The notes under the pieces are model-generated. The model did not search any database and was not told the DNA's origin. It saw only the letters and a list, made by a program, of their open reading frames with translations. Below, one piece after another: positions 8,948 through 53,150 of a stretch of DNA of 64,000 nucleotides (positions within the stretch are counted from its first letter, which is position 1; each line of letters starts with the position of its first letter). The DNA comes from Nitrospirota bacterium (lineage in GTDB: Bacteria; Nitrospirota; UBA9217), in assembly GCA_963840455.1 (NCBI GenBank), contig CAWIYV010000007.1:96001-160000 (forward strand), written 5' to 3'. The translations under genes and the position numbers were made by a program.

Positions 8948-9239
8948 TTGAAGCTCCCTGCAGCAAGCTACAGGGAATCTTCGACCCTTAAGGAAGTATC
9001 CTTATTCTCATCGCTCGCTCCTGGATTTAAGCTCCCTACTGCAAGAGGCGTGGAGCTTCGATCCTTAGGGTAGTGTTTATCCTAATCGCTCGCTAACCCG
9101 CAGAAAACTGCGGGGATGCGCTCGCTCCTGGATTTAAGCTCCCTACTGCAGGAGGTGTGGAGCTTCGATCCTTAGGGTAGTGTTTATCCTGATCGCTCGC
9201 TAACCCGCAGAAAACTGCGGGGATGCGCTCGCTCCTGGA
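8948..9239 (-). mobile_element. tandem array of 3 miniature IS200/IS605-like elements (78+107+107 bp)
   Basis: Units read TT(G/T)AAGCTCCC...CGCTCGCTCCTGGA on the plus strand. Units 2 and 3 are near-identical with a 107-bp period. Confidence 0.8.
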
Positions 9240-9291
9240 TTCAGGAGACGGGAGAGCTTCAATACCTTCTGGCTTCTGGCTCCTCAAGCTT

Positions 9292-11049
9292 ATGCCTTCA
9301 ATCAAGATCCTTCCCGACAATCTCATCAACAAGATCGCCGCCGGTGAGGTGGTGGAGCGCCCGGCATCCGTGGTCAAAGAGCTCGTCGAGAACGCCATCG
9401 ATGCCGGCGCCACGGAGATATTCGTCGAAATAGAACAGTCAGGAAAGCGCCTGATCGTTGTTTCGGACAATGGCAGCGGCATGTCACGGGAGGATGCCCG
9501 GACCTCGTTCGAACGGCACGCCACGAGCAAGATAACGTCGGAGTCCGACCTTGAAAGCATCAGGACCATGGGATTCCGCGGCGAGGCGCTGTCCAGCATC
9601 GCGTCTGTGGCGCAGGTGACCATGAAGACCGCGCAGAAAGGCGCGAATACGGGGACCCTGGTCCAGATCGAGGGCGGGACGGTCAAGGCGATTGCGGACG
9701 CCGCGGCCCCGCAGGGGACCACGATCGAGGTGAACCACCTCTTCTACAACACCCCCGCACGACTGAAGTTCCTGAAAAGCGCAGCCACCGAGCTGTCGCA
9801 TGTCATTGCCGCCGTGTCCCACCAGGCGCTTGCCCGTCCCGAGATCCGGTTCCGGCTGACGCACAACAAGACGATGCTGCTTGATCTGCCGATTGCAAGC
9901 AGCATTCGGGAACGGGCGTTCTCGATATACGGGAACGAACTTGCTGACAGCCTCATGGACTTCGCAGGCGGACGAGATAGCGTCCGGGTCTACGGCCTGA
10001 TCGCCAGACCGAACTATACCCGCGGGGACCGGACCTATCAGGAGTTCTATATCAATAACAGATATGTGAAGAACGCATCGCTGACCCACGCCCTGTACGA
10101 GGCATACAAGGAACTGATCATGCGCGACCGGCATCCAGTCGCGTTCGTGTTCATCGATATCGATCCTCTTCTCGTCGACGTGAACGTCCACCCCGCCAAG
10201 GCGGAGGTCCGGTTCCGGAACCAGTCGCAGGTCCACGACCTTGTGCGGGACGTGATCCGTGAGGCCCTGGGGAGCCACGGACGCCCGACTCGGCAGGCGG
10301 ACATCGGCGGCCATGAGAGCGTACAGGGATATACGGACCGGGTGAAGGAGGCTATCGCTGATTTCACTTCCCGTTCGCCGGAATACGGTACCACACACCC
10401 TCTCTCTCCGGGCGAGGGGGCAGGGACCAGGAGCGATGTTCCGCCGCCGCGCCTCCCTGTCGCCGCGTCTTCCCGTGAGCTCTTTCCCTTCGCCCAGGTC
10501 CATGACTCCTTCATCGTCGCGCAGTCGAACGACGGCATGGCGCTCATCGATCAGCATGCCGCGCACGAACGGGTGCTGTTCGAAAAGCTCCAGGACCAGT
10601 ATGCTGCGGGGACGATCCCGGTCCAGGACCTGCTCTTCCCGGTGCAGGTGGAACTCGGCCATGCCGAGAAGGAACTGCTCGCCGAATACCTCCCCGGGCT
10701 GAACCGTCTCGGACTGCTCGTCGAGGATTTCGGCGGGGCCACGTTCGTCATCAAGGCCGTCCCCGCTCTCCTGGCCAATGGGGACCATAAAAGGCTTCTC
10801 ATCGATATCATCGACGAGATCAAGGTCCACGGAAAAAGCGGGAAGATGGATGCGCTTCGCGACGAGGTCCTGAGCGTCATGGCATGCCATCCGGCCATCA
10901 AGGTCCACCGCAGGTTGAGCATGCAGGAGATGGAGGGCCTCATCCGGGACCTCTTTGCCTGCCGCATGCCCCACTCGTGCCCCCACGGCCGTCCGACGAT
11001 AGTGCGGTTCTCGATGGAAGATATCAAGAAGATGTTCAAGAGGACATGA
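9292..11049 (+). CDS. mutL: DNA mismatch repair protein MutL
   Basis: NKIAAGEVVERP, GFRGEAL, endonuclease motif DQHAAHERVLFE, CPHGRP. Confidence 0.97.
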   Translation: MPSIKILPDNLINKIAAGEVVERPASVVKELVENAIDAGATEIFVEIEQSGKRLIVVSDNGSGMSREDARTSFERHATSKITSESDLESIRTMGFRGEALSSIASVAQVTMKTAQKGANTGTLVQIEGGTVKAIADAAAPQGTTIEVNHLFYNTPARLKFLKSAATELSHVIAAVSHQALARPEIRFRLTHNKTMLLDLPIASSIRERAFSIYGNELADSLMDFAGGRDSVRVYGLIARPNYTRGDRTYQEFYINNRYVKNASLTHALYEAYKELIMRDRHPVAFVFIDIDPLLVDVNVHPAKAEVRFRNQSQVHDLVRDVIREALGSHGRPTRQADIGGHESVQGYTDRVKEAIADFTSRSPEYGTTHPLSPGEGAGTRSDVPPPRLPVAASSRELFPFAQVHDSFIVAQSNDGMALIDQHAAHERVLFEKLQDQYAAGTIPVQDLLFPVQVELGHAEKELLAEYLPGLNRLGLLVEDFGGATFVIKAVPALLANGDHKRLLIDIIDEIKVHGKSGKMDALRDEVLSVMACHPAIKVHRRLSMQEMEGLIRDLFACRMPHSCPHGRPTIVRFSMEDIKKMFKRT

Positions 11050-11068
11050 TTATGAGGAGGGAAGTTCG

Positions 11069-11818
11069 ATGATGGACTGGCTGACCAATCCGGAAGCATG
11101 GATCGCACTTCTGACGCTCACAGCGCTCGAGATCGTGCTGGGCATCGACAACATCATCTTTATCTCCATCCTCGTCAACAGGCTGCCGGATCACCAGCGG
11201 CAGAAGGGCAGGGTGCTCGGGCTCGGCTTTGCCATGGTGACGCGCATCCTGCTGCTGCTCTCGATCACCTGGGTCATGAAGCTGACCTCACCGCTGTTCA
11301 CCGTTCTCGCGAAGGATATCTCGGGGCGTGACATCATTCTCATCGGCGGGGGGCTCTTCCTGCTCTGGAAGAGCACCGTGGAGATCCACGAAAGCCTGGA
11401 GGGGGCGGGTGAGGAGCGCACGGCAGGCGCGCTTGCCGGCTTCGCCGCGACCATCGCCCAGATCGCCATCATCGACATCATCTTCTCGCTTGATTCGGTG
11501 ATCACCGCCGTGGGGCTGGCGCAGGACGTAGCAGTTATGATCATCGCCATCATCGCGGCAGTCGTGGTCATGATGTTCGCGTCGAAGGGGATCGGCGAGT
11601 TCGTGGACCGCCACCCGACCATCAAGGTGCTGGCGCTCAGTTTCCTTGTGGTGATCGGGGTCACGCTGATCGCCGAGGGGTTCGGCTGGCACGTGCCGCG
11701 GGGATACATCTACTTCGCCATGGCCTTCTCCACGATTGTGGAGATGCTGAACATCAGGATGCGGAAGAAGGCTCAACCGGTGAAGCTGCATAAGGCAGTC
11801 GTCGACAAGCCCGAATAA
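11069..11818 (+). CDS. TerC family membrane protein
   Basis: LEIVLGIDN and DIIFSLDSVITAVG motifs. Confidence 0.9.
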   Translation: MMDWLTNPEAWIALLTLTALEIVLGIDNIIFISILVNRLPDHQRQKGRVLGLGFAMVTRILLLLSITWVMKLTSPLFTVLAKDISGRDIILIGGGLFLLWKSTVEIHESLEGAGEERTAGALAGFAATIAQIAIIDIIFSLDSVITAVGLAQDVAVMIIAIIAAVVVMMFASKGIGEFVDRHPTIKVLALSFLVVIGVTLIAEGFGWHVPRGYIYFAMAFSTIVEMLNIRMRKKAQPVKLHKAVVDKPE

Positions 11819-11819
11819 T

Positions 11820-12770
11820 ATGCCTTCCGAACAGAAGCCCATCCTCATCCTCGCAGGGCCCACCGCGGTCGGAAAGACCGAAGCCTCGCTCCTGCTCGCC
11901 CGGGAGTGGGGTGCGGAGATCGTAAGCGCGGACTCGATGCAGATCTACCGCGGCATGGACATCGGGACGGCAAAGCCCTCTCCGGAGCAGCGGGCGCTGG
12001 TCTACCACCACATGATCGATATCGTGGACCCTGCCCAGCCCTACAGTGTCGGCGATTATCTCCGTGATGCGCGGAACGCCATCGACGGCATCCTGAAGAG
12101 CGGGGGCACGCCCGTCGTGGTGGGGGGGACGGGCCTGTACATCCGAGCTTTGATGCGCGGGCTGCTGCACGGGCCGCCGGCGGACATGGAGCTGCGGGAG
12201 CGGCTCCTGAGGAAGGAATCCGATAACGGCGAGGGAACGCTCTACGCGGACCTCGTCAGGCTCGATCCCGAGGCGGCCATCAAGATCCACCCGAATGACC
12301 TGCGGCGCACGATCAGGGCGCTGGAGGTGTACTACATCAGGGATCGGAAGCTTTCGGACCTCCAGAAGACCCACGCCTTTCAAGAGAAGACGCATGCGTT
12401 CCGGCTCCTCTTCCTGGTCAGGGGCCGGTCCGAGCTCTACCCGCGCATCGAACAGCGCGTGGACCAGATGATCTCCCTGGGGCTCGAGGACGAGGTCAAG
12501 AGGCTGATCCTGAAAGGGTACAGCAGAGACCTCATTTCCATGCAGGCCATCGGATACAGCCATTTTATCGATTATTTCAACAACCGGGCATCCTTCGAGG
12601 AGACTGTGGACCTTCTGAAGCGGGACACCAGGCGGTTCGCGAAGCGACAGTTCACCTGGTTCAGGCGGGAGCCGGACGCCCGGTGGGTGGACATCACGGG
12701 GCTCGAAACGCCCGGGGAAATAGTGCGGAAGATAAAGAAAACCATTGAAATTCCAGATAACTTGGTATAA
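11820..12770 (+). CDS. miaA: tRNA dimethylallyltransferase
   Basis: GPTAVGKT, DSMQIYRGMDIGTAKP, AKRQFTWFR. Confidence 0.97.
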   Translation: MPSEQKPILILAGPTAVGKTEASLLLAREWGAEIVSADSMQIYRGMDIGTAKPSPEQRALVYHHMIDIVDPAQPYSVGDYLRDARNAIDGILKSGGTPVVVGGTGLYIRALMRGLLHGPPADMELRERLLRKESDNGEGTLYADLVRLDPEAAIKIHPNDLRRTIRALEVYYIRDRKLSDLQKTHAFQEKTHAFRLLFLVRGRSELYPRIEQRVDQMISLGLEDEVKRLILKGYSRDLISMQAIGYSHFIDYFNNRASFEETVDLLKRDTRRFAKRQFTWFRREPDARWVDITGLETPGEIVRKIKKTIEIPDNLV

Positions 12771-12841
12771 GATTGCAAAACTACAAAAATGGTTTGTGCG
12801 GTGCGGGATAATACTCTTGTTCCCGCGCCCCGGAGGATTTG

Positions 12842-13114
12842 ATGGGCAAGTCGCAGGTGAATCTGCAGGACATCTTCTTGAACCAGATGCGCAAGGAAAA
12901 GATCCCCGTGACCATGTACCTGGTGAACGGAGCCCGCATATCCGGGACCATCAAGGGCTTCGATAACTTCGTAATCCTCATGAAGCAGGAGAACCAGCAG
13001 CTCGTTTACAAACATGCCATCTCGACCATCATCCCCGAGAAGCCGGTAGAGCTTCTCGAAGGCATTGAAGCAAAGAAAGAGGCCGACCCGGCATCCGGAA
13101 CGGCGCAAAGCTAG
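12842..13114 (+). CDS. hfq: RNA chaperone Hfq
   Basis: [22 protein letters not shown]. Follows miaA. Confidence 0.97.
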
Positions 13115-13121
13115 ACCTGTT

Positions 13122-13201
13122 ACCGCAGAGCACGCAGAGACCGTTGAGAAAGGATCTTGTTCCGGGCTGTCCTTTCGAGCACGCTCCGCGGTCTCCGCGG
13201 T
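13122..13201. repeat. 9-nt-periodic inverted-repeat element
   Basis: ACCGCAGAG-CACGCAGAG ... CTCCGCGGT-CTCCGCGGT. Confidence 0.8.
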
Positions 13202-13224
13202 TAAACTATTTAAGGACATCAAGA

Positions 13225-14115
13225 ATGGCGAAAAGGACCGCACGAACGGAACAGGCGGCTGTCGGTGTCATCGGCGGCAGTGGCCTCTACGAGATCGAGG
13301 GGCTCACGAACATCAGGTCCACCAAGGTCGCCACACCCTTCGGAAGACCGTCGGACGACTATATCGTCGGCACGCTCCACGGCATGCGGATCGCGTTCCT
13401 CCCGCGCCATGGACGGGGCCACCGCATCATGCCCACGGATATCAACTACCGGGCGAACATCTACGGGATGAAGAAGCTGGGCGTGGAGCGGATCATCTCG
13501 GTCAGCGCCGTGGGCAGCATGAAGGAAGAGATCAAGCCGGGGGACATCGTGGTCCCGGACCAGTTCTATGATCATACGAAGCACCGCCGAAGCACGTTCT
13601 TTGGGAATGGCATTGTCGCCCACGTGGGGATGGCGGACCCGGTATGCGCCGGCCTCTGCTCGGTGCTGATCGATGCGGGGATCAAGGTCGGGGCAACGGT
13701 CCACCGGGGCGGCACCTACCTCTGCATGGAGGGTCCGCAGTTCTCAACCCGGGCCGAGTCCATGACCTACCGCGAATGGAACGTAGATGTCATCGGCATG
13801 ACGAACGCCACCGAGGCCAAGCTTGCGCGGGAGGCGGAGATCTGCTACAGCACCATCGCCTTGGCCACGGACTATGACTGCTGGCACCACAGTGAAGAGG
13901 CCGTGACGGTCGAAGCGGTGCTCGCCGTGATGAAGCACAACATCGAAACGTCCAAGGCCATGATCCGCCGGGCGGTCCAGATGCTGCCAAAGATGCGGGC
14001 CTGCGGATGCGGTGAGGCGCTCCGGAACACCATCATGACGCCGGCAAAGCTTGTCCCGGCGAAGACGAAGAAGGACCTCGCGCCGATCATCGGGAAGTAT
14101 CTGAAAAACAAATAA
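13225..14115 (+). CDS. mtnP: S-methyl-5'-thioadenosine phosphorylase
   Basis: GVIGGSG, RHGRGH, EGPQFSTRAES, TDYDCW. Confidence 0.93.
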   Translation: MAKRTARTEQAAVGVIGGSGLYEIEGLTNIRSTKVATPFGRPSDDYIVGTLHGMRIAFLPRHGRGHRIMPTDINYRANIYGMKKLGVERIISVSAVGSMKEEIKPGDIVVPDQFYDHTKHRRSTFFGNGIVAHVGMADPVCAGLCSVLIDAGIKVGATVHRGGTYLCMEGPQFSTRAESMTYREWNVDVIGMTNATEAKLAREAEICYSTIALATDYDCWHHSEEAVTVEAVLAVMKHNIETSKAMIRRAVQMLPKMRACGCGEALRNTIMTPAKLVPAKTKKDLAPIIGKYLKNK

Positions 14116-14127
14116 CAAAGCTTTTTT

Positions 14128-14204
14128 ACCGCAGAGGTCGCAGAGGACGCAGATGGTTCATTGATATTGAATTCTTTCTCCGCGGTCTCCGCGTGCTCTG
14201 CGGT
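14128..14204. repeat. 9-nt-periodic inverted-repeat element
   Basis: ACCGCAGAG-GTCGCAGAG-GACGCAGAT ... CTCCGCGGT-CTCCGCGTG-CTCTGCGGT. Confidence 0.85.
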
Positions 14205-14235
14205 GAAATGATCTATTATTGTTTTGGAGGTTGTT

Positions 14236-15144
14236 GTGAGTTTGCTCGTCGTGGGCACCGTGGCCCTGGATTCGGTCAAGACGCCCTTCGGGAACGTGGA
14301 CAATGCGCTCGGCGGGTCCGCCACCTATTTCTCCACATCGGCCAGCTATTTCACCGACGTGCGGCTCGTGGCGGTCATCGGCGAGGACTTCCCCAAGGAG
14401 CACATCAACTTTCTCAAGAGCAAGAGCATTGATGTCCGCGGATTGGAGGTCCAGAAGGGCCAGACCTTCCGATGGAAGGGTGAATACGGTTATGATCTGA
14501 ACGAAGCCCGCACGCTTGCCACGGACCTGAACGTGCTTGCCACGTTCAAGCCGACCATCGTGGAGGACTACCGGGGCTCCGATGTGGTGTTCCTCGCGAA
14601 CATCGATCCGGAGATCCAGCTTGATGTCCTCCGCCAGGTAAAACGGCCCAAGCTGGTTGCCTGTGACACGATGAACTACTGGATATCCAGCAAGCTCGAC
14701 GCCCTGAAGCGGACGCTCAAGGAGGTAGATCTCCTGACCATCAATGAAGGTGAGGTGCGGCAGCTCGCGGGCGAGGCCGGACTGGTGAAGGCGGCGAAGG
14801 CCGTCCAGGCCATGGGCCCGAAGACCGTCGTCGTGAAGCAGGGGAGCTATGGGGCGCTCATGTTCCACGAACACAGCGTGTTCAGCGCACCAGCCTATCC
14901 GCTCGAGTCCGTGTTCGATCCCACGGGCGCCGGTGATTCCTTTGCCGGAGGTTTCATGGGATACCTGGCGAACACCATGAACTTCACCGAGACGAGCATG
15001 CGGCAGGCAGTCATTTTCGGAAGCGTCATGGCGTCGCTGAACGTGGAATCCTTCAGCCTTGACAGGCTGCGCAGCCTGGACTACAAGGAGATCGAGGGAC
15101 GCTATCGGGAATTCAAGAAGCTTACGCATTTCGAAGATATCTGA
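14236..15144 (+). CDS. PfkB family carbohydrate/nucleoside kinase
   Basis: GGSA motif and DPTGAGDSFAGG anion-hole motif. GTG start with GGAGG. Confidence 0.9.
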   Translation: MSLLVVGTVALDSVKTPFGNVDNALGGSATYFSTSASYFTDVRLVAVIGEDFPKEHINFLKSKSIDVRGLEVQKGQTFRWKGEYGYDLNEARTLATDLNVLATFKPTIVEDYRGSDVVFLANIDPEIQLDVLRQVKRPKLVACDTMNYWISSKLDALKRTLKEVDLLTINEGEVRQLAGEAGLVKAAKAVQAMGPKTVVVKQGSYGALMFHEHSVFSAPAYPLESVFDPTGAGDSFAGGFMGYLANTMNFTETSMRQAVIFGSVMASLNVESFSLDRLRSLDYKEIEGRYREFKKLTHFEDI

Positions 15145-15201: not shown

Positions 15202-16500
15202 ATGTTTACCATCAACAATAGTTTGACCGACCTGAAGGTCAAAGAGCGGAATATCTACAAGATACTGTATTCGATGAACAGCCCCCAGGTGGCGACTCCA
15301 GAGCTGGGTGTCGAAGAAGCGCGGTGTTATGTTCTGTTCTTCAGTGAAGGGCAGAACCTGTCGGCGTACATCGGCCTGTACCTTCCCGGCACCGACAGGA
15401 AGATCTTTTACGCGTATACGTCCAACCCGTTCCCGTTCGAAGCGGGGCCCGAAGTCGAAGTGGAAGCAACGGGCTTCGCCGAGGACATGGGGTTCCTGCT
15501 TGATGAGATCAGCGTGAGCGGCATGCCGGTCGATGACCGCAATCGGTGGATCGAGGAGCAGTACATCTTCGGCTATAAGAAACCGGAGCTTGAAAAAGCT
15601 GCCGTCGAGGTGAAGGAAGAGGAGAAGCCGGTTGCGGCCACCAAGGAAGAGGCCCCCGCGGCTCCGCCGAAAACGGAAACTCTAGCGACCCCTGCTCCTG
15701 CAGAACCTGCTCCCGTAGAACCTGCTGCTGCAGTACCGGCACCTGCTGCCAAGCCGGTGCCTGCTTCGGCGCCGTCCCCGGAGCCTGAGTCGCCTGCAGT
15801 TCCCGTGCTGAATGTTCCGACGCCACAGCCGCAGCAGCAGTCCTATCCCCCGTATCAGCAACAGCCGCAGCAACAGGGGCAGCCTGCGCCGCCTCAATAT
15901 CCGCCACAGCAGCCCCTGCAACAGCCGCCGCAATATCCTCTTCAGCAGGGTCAACCGTACGGCCAGCCGCAGCAGCCCTACGGCCAGCCGCAGCAGCCCT
16001 ACGGTCAGCCGCAGCAGCCCTACGGTCAGCCGCAGCAATACCCTCCTCAACAGGATAAACAATACGGTCAGCCTCAACAACCCTATGGCCAGCCTCCACA
16101 GGCGTATCAGCAGTACCCGCCGCAGGCGCCGCAGCACGGACAGCCGGTCCCGAGCCTGTACCCGCCGCCTCAGCCTCCTCAGCAGGTCCATATTCCGCCG
16201 GCAGCACCGCCGCAGAAAAAGACCGCGCCTGCAGCGCCGCCCAAAGCGCCGGTTGTCAAGAAGAAGGCCCAGAAGTCCGCTTCCCCGCCGCCGCCCCGTG
16301 GAGAAGAGCCCGAGGAAGAGGTGCCCGTCGAAACCGAGATGGTTCCCGCTCCCCAGCGTCCGTCCAGTTTATTCGAGGAGGCCCTCAAGGAAGGGGTGGT
16401 GAAACCGCCAAGACCCAAAGCAGCAAAGGCGGTCCGCAGTGCAGCAGGAGTCGTTGCGAGGGATAAAGAAGCCCTTGCCCGACTGCTTTCGTCATTTTGA
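15202..16500 (+). CDS. hypothetical protein with Pro/Gln-rich disordered linker
   Basis: About 125-aa globular N-terminus, PQQPYGQ repeats, C-terminal helix KEALARLLSSF. Confidence 0.8.
   Translation: MFTINNSLTDLKVKERNIYKILYSMNSPQVATPELGVEEARCYVLFFSEGQNLSAYIGLYLPGTDRKIFYAYTSNPFPFEAGPEVEVEATGFAEDMGFLLDEISVSGMPVDDRNRWIEEQYIFGYKKPELEKAAVEVKEEEKPVAATKEEAPAAPPKTETLATPAPAEPAPVEPAAAVPAPAAKPVPASAPSPEPESPAVPVLNVPTPQPQQQSYPPYQQQPQQQGQPAPPQYPPQQPLQQPPQYPLQQGQPYGQPQQPYGQPQQPYGQPQQPYGQPQQYPPQQDKQYGQPQQPYGQPPQAYQQYPPQAPQHGQPVPSLYPPPQPPQQVHIPPAAPPQKKTAPAAPPKAPVVKKKAQKSASPPPPRGEEPEEEVPVETEMVPAPQRPSSLFEEALKEGVVKPPRPKAAKAVRSAAGVVARDKEALARLLSSF
15964..16040 (+). repeat. 21-bp coding tandem repeat (QPQQPYG)
   Basis: CAGCCGCAGCAGCCCTACGG(C/T) x3 plus a partial copy. 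Confidence 0.9.
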
Positions 16501-16501
16501 A

Positions 16502-16658
16502 TCCAGGAGCGAGCGCATTCCCGCAGCTTGCTGCGGGGTTAGCGAGCGATGAGAGTAAGGATACTTCCTTAAGGATCGAAGATTCCCTGTAGCTTGCTGC
16601 AGGGAGCTTCAATCCAGAAAACTGGCTCGATTCCCGTCGTGTGCTGCGGGGGCTTCAA
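16502..16658 (+). mobile_element. miniature IS200/IS605-like element (111 bp) plus tandem 46-bp derivative
   Basis: TGAA|TCCAGGAGCGAGC, then two hairpins, then GAGCTTCAA. A single-hairpin unit ending GGCTTCAA follows. Confidence 0.85.
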
Positions 16659-28416: not shown

Positions 28417-29082
28417 CGAAGTAGGAAATAATTGAGGGCCTATTAAATTGATTTTATTACATTTGGGTCAAACGGCTAACATGCACTTTATGGAATATCT
28501 GAAAATCCGAAATAACATGCAAATTCGGAATATCCTTTTGAGGGGGGATAACAGCATGGAGCCCATCCCGAATGACATTCTGACGCAGTTTAATGCAGTA
28601 TTGGCTCTAAAAGCCGTTCCGTCGGCATCGCACGACGATTACCGGAAGTGGTTGCGCTATTTTCTTGATTACCGGCTCAAGTATCCTCCACCGGAGCAGA
28701 GATCGGAGCAGGTACGATTGTTCATCGAGAAGCTCCGCTCGAAAGGCGAGTCCGGCAGGTCCCTAAACGACGCTGCGCATGCTCTCTCGCTCTTCTTCGC
28801 GCTGCGATCGCCACAGGCCGGAACAACTGCTCTCGCAGGGGATCAGATGCGGTCGCTTGGCATCGCCGAGATATCGTCGGTTGCGCGCGGCGTTCCATTG
28901 GCAAAGCAGGGTGCGCGGGAAGTCGATTCCGGCGGGTATGTCGCGGCAGCGGCAGGAAAGATGCCGCAAAACAGGGGCGGCAGGAAATATAACGAGTGGT
29001 GGTCCCTGGAAAGGGCAAGATCGCCTGAATGGGATGCTGTCGTCATCGATAGGCTGGCAGGAGAGATCAAAGCGCGGCACTA

Positions 29083-29167
29083 TTTAAGCTCCAAAATGAA
29101 AGAGCATAGAGCTTCGATTCTCAAGGTGTAAGCATAATCGTATCCGCTCGCTCCGCTCACTCCAGAA
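29083..29167 (-). mobile_element. degenerate miniature IS200/IS605-like element (85 bp) in intI
   Basis: Removal restores CAC TAT TCG CGT (H-Y-S-R). Confidence 0.8.
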
Positions 29168-29594
29168 TTCGCGTAAGACGCTGAAGGCCTATGCCGGCTG
29201 GTCGCGAAAGTTCCAGATCTACCTGAAGAACAAGCCGCCCCAGGACCTGTCAGCTGATGATGTGAAGTCCTATCTGACCCATCTCGCCGTCCAGTGCAAA
29301 GTGTCGGCGTCTACCCAGAACCAGGCCTTCAACTCGCTCCTGTTCCTATTCCGGCACATACTGAAGCGGGACTTTGGCGACCACAAGGACATTCCGCGAG
29401 CAAAGCGTTCGAGCTATATCCCCGTGGGGCTCACGCGCCAGGAGATCGATTCGGTCCTTCAGCATCTGACGCCCTCCTCTGACCTGGTCGTGAAGCTCCT
29501 GTACGGGTGCGGCCTGCGGCTTTTCGAGTGCGCCAAGCTTCGTCTCGAAAATTTCAATATCGAGGCAACATGGTTGCCCGAATAATAAGATTTC

Positions 29595-30071
29595 ACCGCG
29601 AAGGCGCGAAGGACGCGAGGACGTCCATAGGAGGGACCCAGTGAGAGATATCGAAACTATCGCCTCAAAGATCGTTGCAGCTGCAATGAAAGTCCATACT
29701 GTTCTGGGCCCAGGCTTGTTGGAATCAGCCTATCAGAAATGTATGCAATATGAATTGCAGAAAGACGGGTTAAAGGTAGCGTGTGAAGCGGCTTTGCCGA
29801 TCGTTTATGAAAAGATAACCATTGATGCGGGTTATCGAATTGATATGATGGCAGATGACATGATTATCATCGAAAATATAACGGTGGAAAAACTGCTGCC
29901 GATCCATGAGGCTCAATTGCTGACATATTTGAAGCTGAGAAGCTGCAAGCTGGATTCCTTCTTAACTGGAATGTACCGCGTAGGAAAGATGGTATCAAGA
30001 GGATGGTCAACAATCTATGAAGGTTGCGTCTCAATGTTAAGGTTTCCTCGCGTTCCTTGCGCCTTCGCGGT
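29595..30071 (+). mobile_element. GxxExxY module bounded by 26-bp inverted repeats
   Basis: Left arm ACCGCGAAGGCGCGAAGGACGCGAGG, right arm CCTCGCGTTCCTTGCGCCTTCGCGGT. Confidence 0.75.
29641..30020 (+). pseudogene. GxxExxY family protein (frameshifted)
   Basis: VHTVLGPGLLESAY, YRIDM, HEAQLLTYLKL. A 1-bp deletion lies near 29952, and the shifted frame gives GFLLNWNV...GIKRMVNNL*. Confidence 0.88.
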
Positions 30072-30145
30072 AATGAATTGTCTGGCTTCGTTTCGCATGC
30101 CTTCCGCCACCTATCTCCTGCAGGCCAATTACGATATCCGCACCA

Positions 30146-30257
30146 TTGAAGCTCCTTGCAGCAAGCTGCAGGGAGTCTTCGATCCTCAAGGTTATAATAT
30201 TTATTCTAATCGCTCGCTCACCCCGCAACTGTCTACAGGGCTTGCTCTCGCTCCTGA
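30146..30257 (-). mobile_element. miniature IS200/IS605-like element (112 bp) in intI
   Basis: Removal restores ACC ATT CAG GAA (T-I-Q-E). Confidence 0.88.
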
Positions 30258-30440
30258 TTCAGGAATTGCTCGGCCATACCGATGTCCGGACCACGATGAT
30301 CTACACGCACTGCGTGCCGAGCAGGACGATCAAGGAACTGAAAACCCGCTCGATTTCTGAGCGGGCCTTTGGCGGAGCATAACGTGGTTGAAGCCCCGAT
30401 CAAGTTCGGGGTTGGCTCTGCGGCGACAATGTTAAAACAA

Positions 30441-31508: not shown

Positions 31509-31554
31509 TTCAGAAGCGAGCGCATTCCCCGTAGCTTGCTGCAGGGAGCTTCAA
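31509..31554 (+). mobile_element. 46-bp single-hairpin mini-IS derivative
   Basis: TGAA|TTCAGAAGCGAGCGCATT-CCCCGTAGCTTGCTGCAGGG-AGCTTCAA. Confidence 0.8.
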
Positions 31555-34941: not shown

Positions 34942-34985
34942 CGTAATCCTCAAGAACAAGGAGCCGGCCGACAAAAAAAGGATTT

Positions 34986-35060
34986 ACCGCAGAGAGCGCG
35001 GAGCGAGCTGAGAGAGAATGGAGCAGATAAAAAACTCTGCGATCTCTGCGTGCTCTGCGG
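34986..35060. repeat. 9-nt-periodic inverted-repeat element
   Basis: ACCGCAGAG-AGCGCGGAG-CGAGCTGAG ... CTCTGCGAT-CTCTGCGTG-CTCTGCGG. Confidence 0.85.
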
Positions 35061-35082
35061 AGAAAAAGGATATTTAAGTGTT

Positions 35083-35448
35083 TCAGCTTCTCGTGACGAA
35101 GTACACGCCCACGCAGATGATCAGGATGCCGGTGATGCGCGTGAGCGAGAGGTTCTCCTGGAACAGGTAGTAGCCCGCCACGGCGTTCACGATGTAGCCC
35201 ACGCTCAGAAGGGGGTAGGCGAAGCTCACCTCCACGCGAGACAGGACCAGGAGCCACACGCCGACGCTCACGACGTAGCAGGCCAGGCCGGCAAGGACAA
35301 AAAGGTTTCCCGCGACCATGAACCCGATGGGGACGATATTGGCCCAGATGAACTCGAAGTGTCCGATGCGGCGCATGCCCTCTTTCAGGAAGAGCTGTGC
35401 AGCTGCGTTCAGCATCACACCGAGCATGATCAGCGGCAGATAGTTCAC
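35083..35448 (-). CDS. ArnE/ArnF-like SMR/EamA flippase
   Basis: 4 TMs, AQLFLK, VSFAYPLLSVGY. Confidence 0.85.
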   Translation of the reverse strand: MNYLPLIMLGVMLNAAAQLFLKEGMRRIGHFEFIWANIVPIGFMVAGNLFVLAGLACYVVSVGVWLLVLSRVEVSFAYPLLSVGYIVNAVAGYYLFQENLSLTRITGILIICVGVYFVTRS

Positions 35449-43981: not shown

Positions 43982-44680
43982 ATGGAGCTCAAGAGCCGGA
44001 TCCTCGTGGTGGACGATGAGCAGGACATCCTGCAGCTCGTCACCTACAACCTGAAGAAGGAAGGATACCTGGTGGAGGAGGCGCATACCGGGGACGCGGC
44101 GCTCCGGATGGTGCGCGAGCGGCCCTACCAGCTGATCCTGCTGGACCTCATGCTGCCTGGGCTCTCAGGCATGGAGCTCTGCCGCATCTTCAAGAACGAT
44201 CAAGGGACCGCCCACATCCCCATCATCATGCTGACCGCGCGGTCCGAGGAGATGGACAAGGTGATGGGCCTCGAGACGGGCGCCGACGACTACATCACCA
44301 AGCCCTTCAGCGTCCGCGAGCTCATGGCCCGCGTCAAGAGCGTGCTTCGCCGCGTTGGAGGAACCCTCGCGGGCAGGAAAGTGCTCCGCGCCGGCGGCAT
44401 CGAGGTTGACCTCGAGCGCCACCGCGTCAAGGCCGGGGAGCAGGTCGTGGACCTCTCCCCGACCGAGTTCCGCCTGCTCCGCTTCCTGATGGAGCGGAAA
44501 GGCAAGGTCTTCAGCCGCGACCAGATCCTTGACGCGGTCTGGAAGGGCGAGTCCTTCGTCGAGTCCCGCACGGTTGACGTGCACATCCGGCGGCTCCGTG
44601 CGGAACTGGACAAGGCCGGTGTGGGCAGCGCAGTCGAGACCGTGCGGGGCGTAGGCTACCGGTTCAGCGACGAGGGATGA
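43982..44680 (+). CDS. phoB: PhoB-type response regulator
   Basis: REC plus OmpR winged helix (RTVDVHIRRLR, ETVRGVGYRF). Divergent from pstS. Confidence 0.9.
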   Translation: MELKSRILVVDDEQDILQLVTYNLKKEGYLVEEAHTGDAALRMVRERPYQLILLDLMLPGLSGMELCRIFKNDQGTAHIPIIMLTARSEEMDKVMGLETGADDYITKPFSVRELMARVKSVLRRVGGTLAGRKVLRAGGIEVDLERHRVKAGEQVVDLSPTEFRLLRFLMERKGKVFSRDQILDAVWKGESFVESRTVDVHIRRLRAELDKAGVGSAVETVRGVGYRFSDEG

Positions 44681-44681
44681 A

Positions 44682-44991
44682 TCCAGGAGCGAGCGCTTAG
44701 CGAGCGATTAGGATAAAGACATTACCCTGAGGATCGAAGCGCCATGCAGTATTCTGTAGGGGGCTTCAATCCAGGAGCGAGCGCTTAGCGAGCGATTAGG
44801 ATAAAGACATTACCCTGAGGATCGAAGCGCCATGCAGTATTCTGTAGGGGGCTTCAATCCAGGGGCGAGCGCTTAGCGAGCGATTAGGATAAAGACATTA
44901 CTCTGAGGATCGAAGCGCCATGCAGTATTCTGTAGGGAGCTTCAATCCAGGAGAGAATGCATTCCCTTCAGCGTGCTGAATGTTGCTTTAA
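44682..44991 (+). mobile_element. tandem array: 3 x 88-bp mini-IS units plus a degenerate ~46-bp unit
   Basis: AATCCAG recurs at 44680, 44768, 44856 and 44944. Units end GCTTCAA. Confidence 0.85.
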
Positions 44992-47583: not shown

Positions 47584-47616
47584 TTTCACTCCTGAGCAGT
47601 ACAAGGAAGGCTGGCC

Positions 47617-47994: not shown

Positions 47995-48183
47995 TATTCC
48001 AGGATTCCAGGCCTAACCCCGGACAACCTAAATAAAAATGTCGGAAGCGATGATAGAAAACTTCCGACGTCGAGGGAGGCTGATAGATCGGACCCGCGAG
48101 TATGGAGAGGCTGTCAGCCTATAAAGCCGATGTACCCCAATGCTTCACGACTCATTCACGGCGGATGAGAGAGGTTTGCACGA

Positions 48184-48531
48184 ATGAATGAGCAGGAGAT
48201 CGAACAGATCAGGCAAAAGCTCCTTTGTCTTCGAGCCGAGCTTCTCACTTTTGAAGGATCATCGAGAGAGGCGACCCAGCCGGCGGAACTTGATCAAGAC
48301 GGCATGGGCAGCCTTTCGCGCAGGGCTGCCATGCACATGCAGCAAAAGGCCCAGGAAGGCGCCATGCGGCGCAAGCGTCAACTCCAGAAAATTGACGGCG
48401 CTTTGCGTCGTATAGAAACCGGAGAATACGGCAGGTGTTTTATATGCGAGGAGAAAATTGATGCTTGCAGTCTTTCCAATGACCCGACAAGCACTCGCTG
48501 CGTGAACTGTGTCGAAAGCTCGTCGTCCTGA
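48184..48531 (+). CDS. TraR/DksA C4 zinc-finger protein (divergent)
   Basis: ALRRIETGEYGRCFICEEKI ... CVNC. Confidence 0.85.
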   Translation: MNEQEIEQIRQKLLCLRAELLTFEGSSREATQPAELDQDGMGSLSRRAAMHMQQKAQEGAMRRKRQLQKIDGALRRIETGEYGRCFICEEKIDACSLSNDPTSTRCVNCVESSSS

Positions 48532-48943
48532 CTAGGAAGCCATTAGGGCCAGGTCTTGCGGTTTGACCTTTTGCTTTACGAGTTTATCTTCCGGTTCAAG
48601 GACGCATCCCTCGTTCGATCATCGGATGCAGAGGCTTGCGCGCGGATCGTGATTGCCGCAAGGAAAGCAGGCTGGCGTTACGGGGTCTAGACCGCGCAGC
48701 TCCGACGGGAAATGGGGAGGGCATCGTAAAGGTCGCAGTGTTGAAGTCCGAGGACGGAACGGCTGCGTGGTGGTGTTTCTTAAAGAGCGATAAGCCGCCG
48801 GGAAACGACAGGAAGGCGCCGGGGTCAGTCCTTGATCCCGGATTTTATTTTTTTATGATTGTGTCGACAGGGGAGAACGTGAGGATTCAAACTACGTTCA
48901 TGCCAAGGGAACATCGGGATCTCTTCCGCAACATGTTCTCTTA

Positions 48944-50695
48944 TCAAGAGACAAATATCCTTACCTTTATCCCTTTCCCATAGGTACTTTCGATCCGCAT
49001 ATCCCATCCATGGGCTTTGACCAAGTGCTTCACGATAGCGAGGCCCAGCCCTGTGCCGCCCATGGTGCGCGAACGGGCCGGGTCAACGCGGTAGAAGCGC
49101 TCTCCAAGCCGGGCCAGATGCTTCTCCGGCACGCCGATCCCCGTGTCCTGCACGAACAGGCTGGTCCTGCCGCCCATTTCCTCGATCCCGAACGCCACCG
49201 ATCCCTTTTCCGTGAACTTGATCGCGTTGTCCACGAGGTTGGTCATGATCTGGATCAGCCGGTCCCGGTCTGCCTGGAGCATGCCTGCGTCCGGGGGGAC
49301 GGACACGTTCAGCGCGAGGCCTTTCTTCTCCGCCTTGTTCCGGAGCAGGGCCGTGACCGCTTCCGCCACGTCCCCGAAGGCAACATCTGTCTTCTCGACT
49401 GCGATCGCGCCCAGCTCGATCTTCGAGATGGTCATGAGGTCGTCGACAAGGCTGTTGATGCGCTCGCTGTTGGCCTTGATGGTCGCGACGAACTCCCTGC
49501 CGTGCTCCCGGTCCTCCAGCGCGCCTTCGAGCAGGGTCTCGGCGAATCCCTGAATGGCAGTAATGGGCGTCTTGAGCTCGTGTGACACGTTGGCCACGAA
49601 ATCCTTCCGCATCTGTTCGAGCTTCTTGAGCTGCGTGATGTCATGGAGCGCGATGACAACGCCCCGGTAGCGGTCCTCGCGCATGGACTCCTGCAGGATG
49701 GGAAGGGCAGTGGCGTAGACATGGAGCTGCCGGGGAAGGGCGATGTCGATCTCTGCCGATGCCGGGCGATGCTGCTCGTGCGCCTCGCGCACGATGTCGG
49801 CCAGCTGGTGATTGCGCACCACCTCGAGGAACGGCTTGCCGCTGATGTCCCCGCCCGTGCCGAACATTTCGTGGAAGGCCCGGTTCGCCAGATCGACCTT
49901 GCCGGCCTGGTTGAGCAGCAGGACCCCGTCGGATATGCCGAGGAGGGCGGTCTCGAACCTCGCCTTCTCGTCGTGAAGCGATTTGACCTCGCTCTGGAGC
50001 GACAGGGACATGTTGTTCAGGCTGCCCGCGATCTCCTCGTACTCACCGGACTCCGGCAGGAACAGGCGTCGTCCCAGGCCGCCCTGTGCGATCGAGGTGG
50101 CGAAATCGCGGACCTGCAGGGTGAGCCGGCGCAGTCGCTCGATCTGCCAGAAAACGACGAGGCCCATGACCGCAAGAACGGCGACGACCACAACGATGAT
50201 GCTCATGCGCATCCGCCGGATCGAGGCGTTGACGTCGCTTAAGCTGACGCTCAACCGAATGAAGCCCTGCGGCCGATCGTCCCGGACGATCTTCTTTGCC
50301 ACGTACAGGAGGTCGGTCTTCAGGGTGTTGCTCGTGCGGATGTCCATGCCGCTCCCCGTGAGGTCGGCCTGCTCGATCTCGAGGCGGCCGCGGTGGTTCT
50401 CCATGGTCGAGGAAGCATGGTCGGAATCACCGAGTACCCTGCCGTCCGCCGCAATGATCGTGACGCGCGCATGCGCGACCGACTTCAACTCGGAGGCGAG
50501 GTCGTCGAGCGGGGAGGATGAAGTGAACTGTACTTCGCGCGCGATCAGTTCAGCATGAACCTCCAGCGAGTCACGGAGCGAATGGATCGCGTTCTCGTGA
50601 ACAGACCGCGTAACCGACAGCTCAATGACGAGCACGGAGACAGCCAGGATGGCGGCGAAGAGCAGGAACATCTTTTTAAAAAGACCAGGTTTCAT
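48944..50695 (-). CDS. phoR: PhoR-type sensor histidine kinase
   Basis: TM-HAMP-PAS, RKDFVANVSHELKTP, FYRVDPARSRTMGGTGLGL. Confidence 0.88.
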   Translation of the reverse strand: MKPGLFKKMFLLFAAILAVSVLVIELSVTRSVHENAIHSLRDSLEVHAELIAREVQFTSSSPLDDLASELKSVAHARVTIIAADGRVLGDSDHASSTMENHRGRLEIEQADLTGSGMDIRTSNTLKTDLLYVAKKIVRDDRPQGFIRLSVSLSDVNASIRRMRMSIIVVVVAVLAVMGLVVFWQIERLRRLTLQVRDFATSIAQGGLGRRLFLPESGEYEEIAGSLNNMSLSLQSEVKSLHDEKARFETALLGISDGVLLLNQAGKVDLANRAFHEMFGTGGDISGKPFLEVVRNHQLADIVREAHEQHRPASAEIDIALPRQLHVYATALPILQESMREDRYRGVVIALHDITQLKKLEQMRKDFVANVSHELKTPITAIQGFAETLLEGALEDREHGREFVATIKANSERINSLVDDLMTISKIELGAIAVEKTDVAFGDVAEAVTALLRNKAEKKGLALNVSVPPDAGMLQADRDRLIQIMTNLVDNAIKFTEKGSVAFGIEEMGGRTSLFVQDTGIGVPEKHLARLGERFYRVDPARSRTMGGTGLGLAIVKHLVKAHGWDMRIESTYGKGIKVRIFVS

Positions 50696-50762
50696 GACGA
50701 TCACGGATCATTATACCATAAACCGCGGCACAATCCTCTCCTAGCTGTGGTAAACTAAAACC

Positions 50763-51965
50763 ATGATCGTCATCGAGCCATACAGGGGGAAGCCCGTCAC
50801 AGAGCAGCGTGTGGAGATCGTTGAACGAAAGGGCACGGGCCACCCGGACTACCTCTGCGATTCCATGATGGAGGCGGTCTCCATCGCATTGTCCCGGGAA
50901 TATATGAAGAAGTTCGGGGCAATCCTGCACCACAACATCGACAAGGGACTCCTGGCCGCGGGCCGGGTCGAGAAGCTGTTCGGCGGCGGGAGCGTGCTCG
51001 CTCCCATGGAGCTGAACATCGGCGACCGGGCAACCTTCGAGGCCGGAGGAACGAAGGTGCCAGTCGTTGACATCGCGGTCGCCGCGGTGAAGGGATGGCT
51101 CAAAAAGAACATGCGGTTCGTGGACCCGGACAAACATCTGCGATACCGTGTGCTGCTGTCACAGGGATCGGAGGAATTGACCGATATCTTCGCCCGCTCA
51201 GGGAAGATATTGGGCGCGAATGACACCTCGGCAGCGGTCGGGTATTACCCCTTAAGTCCCACCGAGGAGGCGGTGCTGTCGCTCGAGCGCCACTTGAACT
51301 CGAAGGCGTTCAAGAACAAGTATCCCGAGACCGGCGAGGACATCAAGGTGATGGGGCTCAGGACCGGCAGGGACCTGGACCTGACCGTGGCCATGCCGCT
51401 TGTCTCCCGCTTCGTCTGGAACGAAAAAAGCTACTTCGAGCGCAAAGAAGTGCTTCAGAAAGAGATGAAGAGCTACGTACGCAGGTTCGAGGAATTCAGT
51501 AAGGTCCTGGTCCACTTCAACACGCTCGATGAACCGGGCCGGGGCCTGAACGGCGTGTACCTGAGCCTGCTCGGCACGTCGGCCGAGGACGCGGACTCGG
51601 GGCAGGTTGGCCGGGGCAACCGCGTGAACGGCCTCATCTCGCTCAACCGGCCCATGGGGACCGAGGCGGCGGCAGGCAAGAACCCGGTGAGCCACGTCGG
51701 CAAGATCTACAACGTACTGACGCACCGCATCGCGAAGAAACTGTATGAGAACATCAAAGGCTGTCGGGAGGTGTATGTCCTGATGCTCAGCCGGATCGGC
51801 ACGCCAATCAACGAGCCGCAGGTCGCGACCGCCCAGGTCCTGCTGGAGAAGGGGAGACGGGTCAGCGATATTGCCAAAAGGGCCGAGGAGATCATCGGCC
51901 GGGAGCTCGGGTCCATAAATAAATTTTGCATGGAATTGAGCAGGGGGAAGTATCCGATCTGCTGA
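50763..51965 (+). CDS. archaeal-type S-adenosylmethionine synthetase
   Basis: VERKGTGHPD, HHNIDK, ANDTS, GEDIKVMG, GRGNRVNGLI, GKNPVSHVGKIYN. Confidence 0.9.
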   Translation: MIVIEPYRGKPVTEQRVEIVERKGTGHPDYLCDSMMEAVSIALSREYMKKFGAILHHNIDKGLLAAGRVEKLFGGGSVLAPMELNIGDRATFEAGGTKVPVVDIAVAAVKGWLKKNMRFVDPDKHLRYRVLLSQGSEELTDIFARSGKILGANDTSAAVGYYPLSPTEEAVLSLERHLNSKAFKNKYPETGEDIKVMGLRTGRDLDLTVAMPLVSRFVWNEKSYFERKEVLQKEMKSYVRRFEEFSKVLVHFNTLDEPGRGLNGVYLSLLGTSAEDADSGQVGRGNRVNGLISLNRPMGTEAAAGKNPVSHVGKIYNVLTHRIAKKLYENIKGCREVYVLMLSRIGTPINEPQVATAQVLLEKGRRVSDIAKRAEEIIGRELGSINKFCMELSRGKYPIC

Positions 51966-51982
51966 AGTGAAGGGAGGGAAAT

Positions 51983-52396
51983 ATGAGATTCGTATTGAAT
52001 GTCGCTCTGATGCTGTTGTTCCTTTCGGGACCTGCGCTGGCAGATGAGCAGGCCGCTGCAAAACGGTTTGTCGCGACCATCGACAAGGACGGGTATCAAC
52101 GCGTGGAGATGACGGCAGGAGAGTATTATTTCGATCCTTCGGTCGTGGTGGTGAAGGTAAACGTGCCGGTGGAGCTCACGATCAGGAAGACCGGCGGCAT
52201 TACGCCCCATACCATTGCCATGAAGGCACCTGAGGCGGGCCTCGATTTTACGATCGATATCTCGAAAGACCCGAAAAAGATCTCGTTCATGGCGACGAAG
52301 ACCGGCACCTATCCCTTCGAATGCACCGAGCGGTTCCTGTTCTTCAAGAGCCATAAGGACCGGGGCATGCACGGTGCGCTCGAGGTGGTGGAGTAA
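51983..52396 (+). CDS. exported cupredoxin-domain protein
   Basis: Signal peptide, PH motif, C-terminal C...H....M copper ligands. Confidence 0.8.
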   Translation: MRFVLNVALMLLFLSGPALADEQAAAKRFVATIDKDGYQRVEMTAGEYYFDPSVVVVKVNVPVELTIRKTGGITPHTIAMKAPEAGLDFTIDISKDPKKISFMATKTGTYPFECTERFLFFKSHKDRGMHGALEVVE

Positions 52397-52459
52397 GGAC
52401 AGGAGTCAGGAGTCAGAACAACACCTTCTGCCGCAGCTGTTATTTCAAACCAAGATACA

Positions 52460-52891
52460 ATGATCGACAAAGAGTTCATCGCCTATTTCAAGCTTGCCCA
52501 CGGATTCTTCAATCTCTCCATGCTGGCTTTGTTCTGCTTCCAGGCCTGGATGGGCTTCCTGATACGGCAGGCGAGGACAACGGGGGCGCCGACGCCGCTC
52601 GACGCCGTCCGGAGGCACCGGAAAGCAGGGCCGGTCTTCGCGCTGTGGGGGGTGTTGGGATTTATCTCCGGGATGACGGTGGCGGTGCTCGACAAGGGCA
52701 GGGTGATCGAGTATCCGCTTCATTTCCTGACGGGCCTGTCCATCGCGCTGTGCATCGGCGGGGTCTACGCCGTCTCGCGCAGGATCCGGGCTGGCGAGCA
52801 GGCCTTCCGGAACATTCACTTCGGCCTGGGCCTGCTCCTGCTGGCCTTGTATGTCATCCAGGTCATGCTGGGCCTCAGCATCCTGCTATGA
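52460..52891 (+). CDS. 4-TM His-containing membrane protein (DUF4079 / cytochrome b561-like)
   Basis: One His per TM region. Confidence 0.65.
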   Translation: MIDKEFIAYFKLAHGFFNLSMLALFCFQAWMGFLIRQARTTGAPTPLDAVRRHRKAGPVFALWGVLGFISGMTVAVLDKGRVIEYPLHFLTGLSIALCIGGVYAVSRRIRAGEQAFRNIHFGLGLLLLALYVIQVMLGLSILL

Positions 52892-53037
52892 TCAGGGACC
52901 ACGTTAGGAATAGACGATACACATTATTGACCGCAGAAAGATTATGATACGTATGAGGAATGATGGATGGCCTTGAGCCGCTTCATATTTTCATCATACG
53001 TTAGCAGCGAAAGTCTGTGTTGAATTGGTCCCTCGCA

Positions 53038-53150
53038 TTGAAGCTCCCTGCAGCTCGCTTCAGGGAATCTTCGATCCTCAAGGTGGTATTATTTATTCTG
53101 ATCGCTCGCTAACTCCGCAGCAAGCTACGGGGGATGTGCTCGCTCCTGGA
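53038..53150 (-). mobile_element. miniature IS200/IS605-like element (113 bp)
   Basis: Both hairpins present. On the minus strand it follows TGAA and ends GCTTCAA. Confidence 0.85.

Follow-up and report, generated by a model that had tools for sequence, protein, structure and literature searches.

The 64,000-nt stretch of DNA analysed here (contig CAWIYV010000007.1, positions 96001 to 160000, that is C7:96001-160000 of the source genome, G000; hereafter the window) comes from a Nitrospirota bacterium and carries a family of short repeats that are very likely palindrome-associated transposable elements (PATEs), gene-less derivatives of IS200/IS605-type insertion sequences (IS) that move as single-stranded DNA. 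The case is built on an anatomy with two hairpins near the ends, a preference for one target sequence, a match to the pairing rule known from IS608, a strand bias, and presence in one species alongside absence in another. The original prediction, made from the letters of the window, had described seven loci and about 13 units; direct reading found all seven loci, with 13 units, at the positions and sizes that it gave.

The source genome (4.03 Mb in 14 contigs, 100% complete by marker genes) was searched as a whole with an nhmmer profile built from five window copies. The search gave 280 matches at E<1e-5, 164 of which span the whole profile. Counted as units, the family comprises 269 in 226 loci under a strict threshold (E<1e-8) and 315 in 268 loci under a loose one (E<1e-3, overlaps removed); the units are 46-159 nt long and make up roughly 0.7-0.8% of the genome sequence. 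This abundance is far above chance. Within the window, a repeat search linked the seven loci to each other in both orientations, and the profile and the repeat search together recovered all units except a degenerate one of 46 nt at 16613-16658. The 46-nt unit at 44946-44991 was matched weakly, by the left-end profile only (E 0.0025), and the nhmmer profile found no further family copy in the window at E<0.01.

A 112-nt consensus was derived from 142 full copies (105-116 nt), with most positions 80-99% conserved. Its order is TCCAGGAGCGAGCGCATT, hairpin 1 (CCCCGCAGCTTGCTGCGGGG), TTAGCGAGCGATTAGAATAA, a variable stretch of 8 nt, CCTTGAGGATCGAAGATT, hairpin 2 (CCCTGCAGCTTGCTGCAGGG) and AGCTTCAA. 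The two hairpins (consensus 19-38 and 85-104) lie on the same strand, each with an 8-bp stem and a CTTG loop, the first 18 nt inside the left end and the second 8 nt inside the right end. DNA folding supports them, with a z of -2.75 for the copy at 16502, and decayed copies are without such a fold. Terminal inverted repeats are absent: the left (TCCAGGAGCGAGC..) and right (..CAGGGAGCTTCAA) ends are not reverse complements of each other.

The units sit after a preferred tetranucleotide. TGAA precedes 129 of the 178 non-tandem left ends in the source genome, the next most frequent flanks being CGAA (11) and TGGA (9), and the right end reads TTCAA in 183 of 276 cases and TTAAA in 52. The picture is similar elsewhere: among 50 full copies from other genomes, 32 follow TGAA and 39 terminate in TCAA. 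Insertion after TGAA had been predicted from six loci flanked by TGAA and one flanked by CGAA; reading of the seven loci returned the same flanks, and both the genome-wide counts and the TGAA found at empty sites agree with the preference. The use of two TGA stop codons as part of the target, also predicted, was seen in the stops of the upstream genes at 16498-16500 and 44678-44680, the latter belonging to a response-regulator-like gene (..VGYRFSDEG*).

In IS608, as reported, the left guide AAAG goes with the left cleavage site TTAC, and the right guide GAAT with the right cleavage site TCAA; the pairs seen in the structures are A+16:T-3, A+17:T-4, C-3:G-35 and T-4:A-34; a contact between T-4 and A-2 is found in both sites, and an AG 3' of the right hairpin forms triplets (PMC5934647; PMC3201880). 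According to the same papers, the left site lies 19 nt 5' of the left hairpin and the right site 10 nt 3' of the right hairpin. Taken as a rule, this means that bases 1, 2 and 4 of the guide pair with bases 2, 1 and 4 of the site, respectively; the 4:4 pair was deduced from the published IS608 sequences. In the consensus, CATT lies 5' of hairpin 1 and faces the flanking TGAA, while GATT lies 5' of hairpin 2 and faces the terminal TCAA; 6 of 6 positions are complementary, and where the guides differ from each other (C versus G), the sites differ correspondingly (G versus C). Both sites have T at position 1 and A at position 3, and AG follows hairpin 2, as in the published IS608, whose reported right end is indeed the TCAA cited in the original prediction (PMC5934647; PMC3201880). 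Copy by copy, CATT and TGAA occur together in 65 of 142, and GATT and TCAA in 68 of 142. A seven-copy IS200 of a relative provides an independent check: its copies are identical, starting after TTAT and finishing in TTAC, and its guides AATA (for TTAT) and AATG (for TTAC) are those that the rule predicts, at the same 18/8 spacing. The rule held at 7 of the 8 ends inspected by eye.

A search for empty orthologous sites, which had been proposed earlier as a check, was made in five other genomes of the same genus, including G003 and G004, and sites that are empty or in an older state were seen for the insertions at 53038, 16502 and 8948-9239. First, the site of the 53038 insertion is empty in G003 (..CGTAT|TCATC..; flanks 94% identical), with no bases gained or lost. 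Second, the 16502 site is empty in G004, where TTCTGAA|CGACC stands at the stop codon of the same gene. At this site G003 has one degenerate copy of ~116 nt and lacks the young 111-nt copy, which in the source genome sits exactly between TGAA and the old copy shared with G003; re-insertion at an occupied TGAA has taken place there. Third, the whole array at 8948-9239 is missing in all five sister species, including G003 (flank 96% identical). The filled sites at 53038 and 16502 equal the empty site plus the element exactly.

The family is otherwise of mixed age. Mean pairwise identity of the 142 full copies is 0.80; about 24 of them match a copy at a different locus with at least 96% identity, the best pairs reaching 98-99%, and the sole 100% pair lies in a duplicated contig end. 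In hairpin 1, 111 broken pair cells stand against 17 compensated ones. Such decay without compensation fits selfish DNA and not structures selected in place.

BLAST found the family in all five other genomes of the genus, in 14 of 24 from the bacterial family, and in none of the 16 searched from other families of the phylum. A first look gave 53-174 repeat candidates in each of five genus genomes and 274 in the source genome, figures that are not copy numbers. A scan of a genome collection for the exact 20-nt left end returned at least 70 loci, and the records are titled Nitrospirae, Nitrospiraceae or Nitrospiria metagenome-assembled genomes with two exceptions. One, a Planctomycetota match (L103), is a chance 20-mer within a coding region and no copy. 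The other, a genome labelled Chloroflexia, has three copies that lie within 19 kb on a contig of 4.18 Mb (L180-L182, G077:C8:55201-74089) and none elsewhere at E<=0.001; either the segment came from a Nitrospirota donor or the assembly is chimeric. A viral collection gave no match to the 20-nt left end.

The element top strand lies on the G-rich strand at 144 loci and on the other at 68 (212 callable; 13 others were uncallable). Replication direction was derived from GC skew, which is coherent along the large contigs of the source genome, and gene orientation from a crude open-reading-frame map. By this skew proxy the G-rich strand is the leading-strand sequence and thus the lagging-strand template, on which the element top strand lies. 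This is the direction published for IS200/IS605 elements, whose insertion orientation is reported to correspond to the lagging-strand template (PMC5027513). By the crude map, 61.5% of genes are on the leading strand; the bias is also seen between divergent or convergent genes (68 versus 30 loci, p = 1.6e-4). Intergenic TGAA occurs on the G-rich strand in 52.9% of cases, and the bias measured against that expectation has p = 1e-5. Gene orientation and target supply do not explain the strand bias.

The following mechanism is proposed. A TnpA transposase of the Y1 HUH type, acting in trans, would bind the top strand at its two subterminal hairpins. One cut would fall 3' of the TGAA in the flank, at 18 nt from hairpin 1, and the other 3' of the TCAA that ends the element, 8 nt past hairpin 2. 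The sites would be found by pairing of DNA with DNA (CATT with TGAA, GATT with TCAA), not by protein contacts. After excision, the single-strand circle would integrate 3' of a new TGAA on the lagging-strand template, without target duplication. TGAA would survive the insertion, so the same site could be hit again, which would lead to head-to-tail arrays. Beyond the observations above, we infer the enzyme, the single-stranded intermediate, and that an IS200 clade with the GCAGCTTGCTGC hairpin mobilises the element in trans.

A size series made by loss or fusion of hairpins had been foreseen, and the forms can be explained in this way: the 46-nt form arose by fusion of the two hairpins, which are nearly identical (31 pairs of left and right ends lie 40-49 nt apart in the source genome), the 78-nt form has lost hairpin 1 by deletion between two AGCGAGCG direct repeats flanking it, and in the 88-nt form hairpin 1 has been excised. 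Larger variants also occur. Twelve copies of 152-159 nt in the source genome (for example, C10:155239-155391 and C11:456211-456364) have an extra module of ~42 nt, GC-rich and partly palindromic, directly after hairpin 1, and four copies have a 24-nt insert, single or doubled, in a hairpin loop. This 24-nt sequence has 11 occurrences in the source genome at <=3 mismatches, all outside the window. Six are in loops of hairpin 1 or 2 (..CAGC|insert|TTGCTG..), at C14:506918, C14:263148, C10:59381, C9:40760, C8:59076 and C7:65760, and five are at unrelated sites, also after GC, at C9:237301, C9:123432, C11:213913, C11:753182 and C13:85951; the element at C14:216537-216697 has a nested double copy. 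The sequence may be a very small mobile insert favouring these palindromes, comparable to the SMR-A repeats described in the Haloquadratum PATEs.

Variants and arrays also bear on a different view, in which the family would be a set of REP/BIME-like repeats (repetitive extragenic palindromes and bacterial interspersed mosaic elements), extragenic palindromes tolerated by the host, spread by RAYT (REP-associated tyrosine transposase) enzymes or by recombination and acting in mRNA stability or termination; on this view it would be no transposon with ends of its own. REP/BIME repeats that go with a RAYT are single short palindromes in inverted pairs, and the Y1 gene is flanked by them. High copy number, mostly intergenic positions, modular variants with extra 42-nt and 24-nt modules, the occurrence of copies in arrays and a mild excess of copies co-oriented with the upstream gene (133 versus 92 loci) would all suit such repeats. 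However, here the ends are fixed and asymmetric and the flanking TGAA is fixed; the hairpins are direct, not inverted, and arrays are always head-to-tail, none of 32 mixing orientations. Moreover, some insertions are within coding sequence, copies decay without compensatory change, no RAYT or Y1 gene flanked by the repeat was found in the source genome or at the loci scanned, and no Rfam family matches in the window. We therefore regard the REP/BIME explanation as very improbable. The published REP/BIME and RAYT (TnpA-REP) systems (Ton-Hoang et al. 2012, PMC3333891), in which many copies of intergenic hairpins with a relationship to IS200/IS605 ends go together with Y1 enzymes, resemble the present family in their repeated intergenic hairpins; the family differs in its two direct hairpins, asymmetric ends and flanking target.

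Several observations weigh against reading the repeats as PATEs. The TTAAA/GCT subfamily (37 of 142 copies) breaks the guide rule at its own right end. With the guide lost (GCT for GATT, TAAA for TCAA), TTAAA-type right ends probably cannot be cut, judging from the sequence; when folded, a right end that has GCT where GATT would stand forms one long perfect stem. Another unit follows 28 of 37 TAAA-ended units versus 5 of 134 TCAA-ended ones (p = 2e-19). A unit whose right end stays uncut would travel with the next as a composite element, and such joint movement would account for the all-or-none occurrence of the 107+107+78 array. Arrays raise a further point. Their neighbouring units are from 65% to 99% identical, and the 5'-most unit is the best preserved in 18 cases versus 15, so that the idea of the newest unit being always 5'-most is unsupported. 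Without consistent 5' preservation, repeated insertion would not be the sole route to arrays; they probably arise both by repeated insertion at a surviving TGAA and by local duplication or composite transposition.

Target duplication is another such point. Flank and element both end in AA, which fixes the boundaries only within a 2-nt shift (3 nt if the next base is T) and makes a 2-bp AA duplication formally possible. This touches a further rival, a miniature inverted-repeat transposable element (MITE) belonging to a DDE (cut-and-paste) or IS110-type element, with TGAA(T) as the target and AA or AAT as the duplicated bases; with T next at 134 of 212 non-tandem right ends, either duplication is formally possible. 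But AA is preceded by G in the left flank and by C at the right end, which limits any duplication to 2 bp, and the element's first T is no duplicated base, since it is retained when the downstream base is C (65 of 212; TGAA|..TCAA|CG at 16502). Exceptional flanks gave no help: the AA of the flank and the terminal AA of the element show no covariation either way, which makes this comparison uninformative on duplication. In the seven-copy IS200 of the relative, a sister of the same architecture, the left flank TTAT and the right end TTAC permit no duplication. The lack of terminal inverted repeats also speaks against a DDE or IS110-type MITE, and the guide-rule match and strand bias are unexpected for DDE elements. 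We give this rival hardly any credence.

Further points against the PATE reading concern the enzyme. The original prediction had called the family non-autonomous and mobilised in trans; the first part is borne out by a non-autonomous IS200/IS605 anatomy, and the second is still something we infer, no partner with the same ends having been found in the source genome, among the genus and family matches listed, at 69 loci scanned for element ends or hairpin (29 Y1 loci and 40 further IS200 loci) or at the at least 70 left-end loci elsewhere. The source genome has only two broken genes with the Y1 domain (PF01797), neither within 5 kb of any unit, and no TnpB (PF07282). In a Y1 survey of the genus and family (150 of 347 matches listed), the only canonical-length TnpA of the genus among the matches listed is at G004:C84, in an intact copy of the unrelated IS that is also on C10 of the source genome (see below). 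None of the 29 family Y1 loci has element ends by nhmmer, and none of the at least 70 left-end loci has a canonical TnpA beside it (five protein queries).

Further searches in the source genome gave no candidate: left and right ends paired at 125-6000 nt enclose only ordinary genes or nested variants, and the contig ends have no common IS. The broken IS200 on C10 has an in-frame TAG, and at its right end it obeys the guide rule (GAAA/TCAT). It was ruled out as the parent by its different right-end hairpin (CCCCCGGC..GCCGGGGG) and flanking sequence, its left end being undefined; as a past helper it is possible. The second broken Y1 gene, of a long Y1 type, has decayed to 71 aa, and protein search added a further remnant of 26 aa.

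Long Y1 proteins (~290-350 aa, an HUH/Tyr core with a C-terminal helix-turn-helix) account for the other genus Y1 matches listed, and they could in principle mobilise the same kind of element as an enzyme kept by the host, in the manner of RAYTs. They make up all the Y1 matches listed in four of the five sister genomes (2-17 matches per genome), they retain the NHVHLL and GRYK motifs, and two remnants of them are present in the source genome. One of the at least 70 left-end loci has a left end ~50 nt behind a long Y1 gene, and copies differ between the source genome and G003, neither of which has an element-matching TnpA. Yet no repeat hairpin or end was found within 1.5 kb of the sampled long Y1 genes (L030-L037); such genes also occur in family genomes in which no copies were found (G009, G013, G019), while two genomes have copies but no Y1 match (G018, G020), and the source genome, with the most copies, has no intact long Y1 gene. 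Mobilisation by long Y1 proteins is thus unlikely.

Returning to PATEs moved by a canonical TnpA, the nearest candidate partner, judged by sequence, is an IS200 clade with the GCAGCTTGCTGC hairpin core and the same spacing. IS200 copies in other genera of the same bacterial family have CCCAGCAGCTTGCTGCTGGG and CCTCGCAGCTTGCTGCGGGG hairpins at 18/8 spacing with other guides and targets. A gene-less element of a sister family, at ~990-1140 of locus L067 (G053:C2:813400-814600), starts after TTAT and ends in TCAC, and has one hairpin with exactly the consensus sequence of hairpin 1. If the enzyme reads the hairpins and the DNA reads the cleavage sites, a TnpA of the GCAGCTTGCTGC clade could in principle move the element. 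We tentatively suggest that the element is a guide-swapped hitchhiker, which keeps nothing but a hairpin known to an IS200 TnpA clade, bears its own guides CATT and GATT, and has stayed mobile, in a genus without a matching resident canonical TnpA, via an enzyme brought in by other mobile DNA or a non-canonical Y1, although this is doubtful. If it were true, the target TGAA, often a stop codon plus one base, would be unlike the target of any autonomous IS using the same enzyme; target choice would evolve on a non-coding passenger independently of the transposase, and arrays would come from repeated hits on the surviving target.

The window units illustrate most of these forms. The array at 8948-9239 is on the minus strand. 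Its 5'-most unit is of 107 nt (9133-9239), preceded by TGAA (9240-9243, minus strand), with a right end of the TTAAA type and GCT in place of the GATT guide; a second 107-nt unit (9026-9132), internal to this head-to-tail array of three, is 97% identical to its neighbour and also has a TTAAA-type right end; and the terminal 78-nt unit (8948-9025), without hairpin 1, has the canonical right end of GATT, hairpin and AGCTTCAA. Adjoining this array, at 9240-9262 and in opposite orientation, is a 23-nt stretch (TTCAGGAG..GGGAGAGCTTCAA) that resembles a unit reduced to its first 8 and its last 13 bases; it may be an extreme deletion remnant.

On the plus strand, the young, near-consensus unit of 111 nt at 16502-16612 lies between TGAA (16498-16501) and the older copy, of which the degenerate 46-nt unit (16613-16658, plus) is a remnant, orthologous to the left part of the ~116-nt copy in G003. 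The gene whose TGA stop was the target of the 16502 insertion contains 21-nt tandem repeats (15826-16089) that encode a Gln/Pro/Tyr-rich stretch. A solo terminal-only unit of 46 nt (31509-31554, plus) stands after TGAA and has a single fused hairpin between the leftmost 18 nt and the rightmost 8 nt of the element. The plus-strand array at 44682-44991 has three 88-nt units (44682-44769, 44770-44857 and 44858-44945), 96-100% alike and without hairpin 1, the first after TGAA, and ends with a degenerate 46-nt unit (44946-44991, plus). The 113-nt unit at 53038-53150 (minus), whose orthologous site in G003 is empty, is flanked by TGAA on its left.

Two further units, both on the minus strand, are within a decayed integron-integrase gene (28448-30379, plus). 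One is a degenerate unit of 85 nt (29083-29167) with left flank CGAA and right end TTAAA, and the other is of 112 nt (30146-30257) with left flank TGAA. Removal of the units had been claimed to restore the integrase frame, and so it does at both sites, giving ..RHY|SRKT.. at the first and ..DIRTI|QELLGH.. at the second, which are conserved motifs. The integrase fragments match TIGR02249 best, with 134.7 bits (profile positions 15-145) and 28.4 bits (283-302). The pseudogene is also interrupted by a gene of the GxxExxY family (TIGR04256, 91.8 bits) at ~29640-30030, which has a frameshift of its own near the 3' end. With an integron integrase nearby, attC sites were considered as an identity for the units and rejected from the anatomy: a unit as a whole is no palindrome, units are spread throughout the genome, and the integrase gene itself is broken by two of them.

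Elsewhere in the window, a second, unrelated repeat family (5572-5687, 13120-13155, 14126-14239 and 34984-35096) consists of CGCAGAG-like 9-nt units in inverted pairs. At 58791-63672 there are three tandem paralogous genes, 2111-2222 nt apart and 60-83% alike in DNA, which may be ammonium-transporter genes, judging from a GLDFAGG-like motif.

The class to which the family is assigned is already known, and the family adds to it. No publication on IS200-type MITEs in Nitrospirae was found in a library that is incomplete, so the family may already be described. The repeats differ between closely related species, and hence matter for annotation, assembly breaks and pseudogene calls. The PATEs of Haloquadratum walsbyi were described as derivatives of IS200/IS605 type without open reading frames (Dyall-Smith et al. 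2011, PMC3119063). By the definition given in that paper, the present element matches in having no inverted termini, near-terminal palindromes and a length too short for a transposase, with an AA duplication possible. In both cases the near-terminal palindromes are of similar sequence and the copy number is high; deletion between the palindromes has produced a terminal-only form, of 52 bp in Haloquadratum and 46 nt in the present family, small repeats of other kinds are inserted in palindromes, and insertions are specific to strains or species despite the lack of an intact IS200-type transposase. The account of the Haloquadratum PATEs reports no target duplication; here a filled site is the empty site plus the element, and an AA duplication of at most 2 bp is possible. 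The family differs from them, as far as they are described there, in its bacterial (Nitrospirota) host, unrelated sequences, TGAA target and a subtype for internal junctions in head-to-tail arrays, and also in that no parent IS with the same ends was found here. A puzzle noted for Haloquadratum thus recurs, namely that PATEs look recently mobile where no intact cognate TnpA is seen (PMC3119063).

Compared with IS608 of Helicobacter pylori (He et al. 2011, PMC3201880; Morero et al. 2018, PMC5934647), the element shares subterminal hairpins, the TCAA right end and the register of the guides, with the left site in the flank (19 nt there, 18 here) and the right site inside the element (10 there, 8 here), as well as the lagging-strand-template orientation of insertion. 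Unlike IS608 as published, it has no tnpA or tnpB, its target is TGAA and not TTAC, the third guide base is T and not A, and its 8-bp stems are perfect, with no extrahelical T seen, in an element known here from sequence alone. The multi-copy IS200 of the relative G053, from the same bacterial family (L009, L060-L065), has a nearly identical hairpin (GCAGCTTGCTGC core, CTTG loop) and shares the 18/8-nt spacing and the pairing rule with the element. Unlike the element, it encodes a TnpA (157.6 bits to PF01797, no internal stop) and pairs AATA with TTAT and AATG with TTAC; its terminal and internal sequences are unrelated to the element (no nhmmer match), and the 112-nt element has 0 matches in the G053 genome. 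The family provides a natural test of the IS608 pairing rule: in two related lineages that share hairpin and spacing, the guides differ, and the targets differ with them, as predicted.

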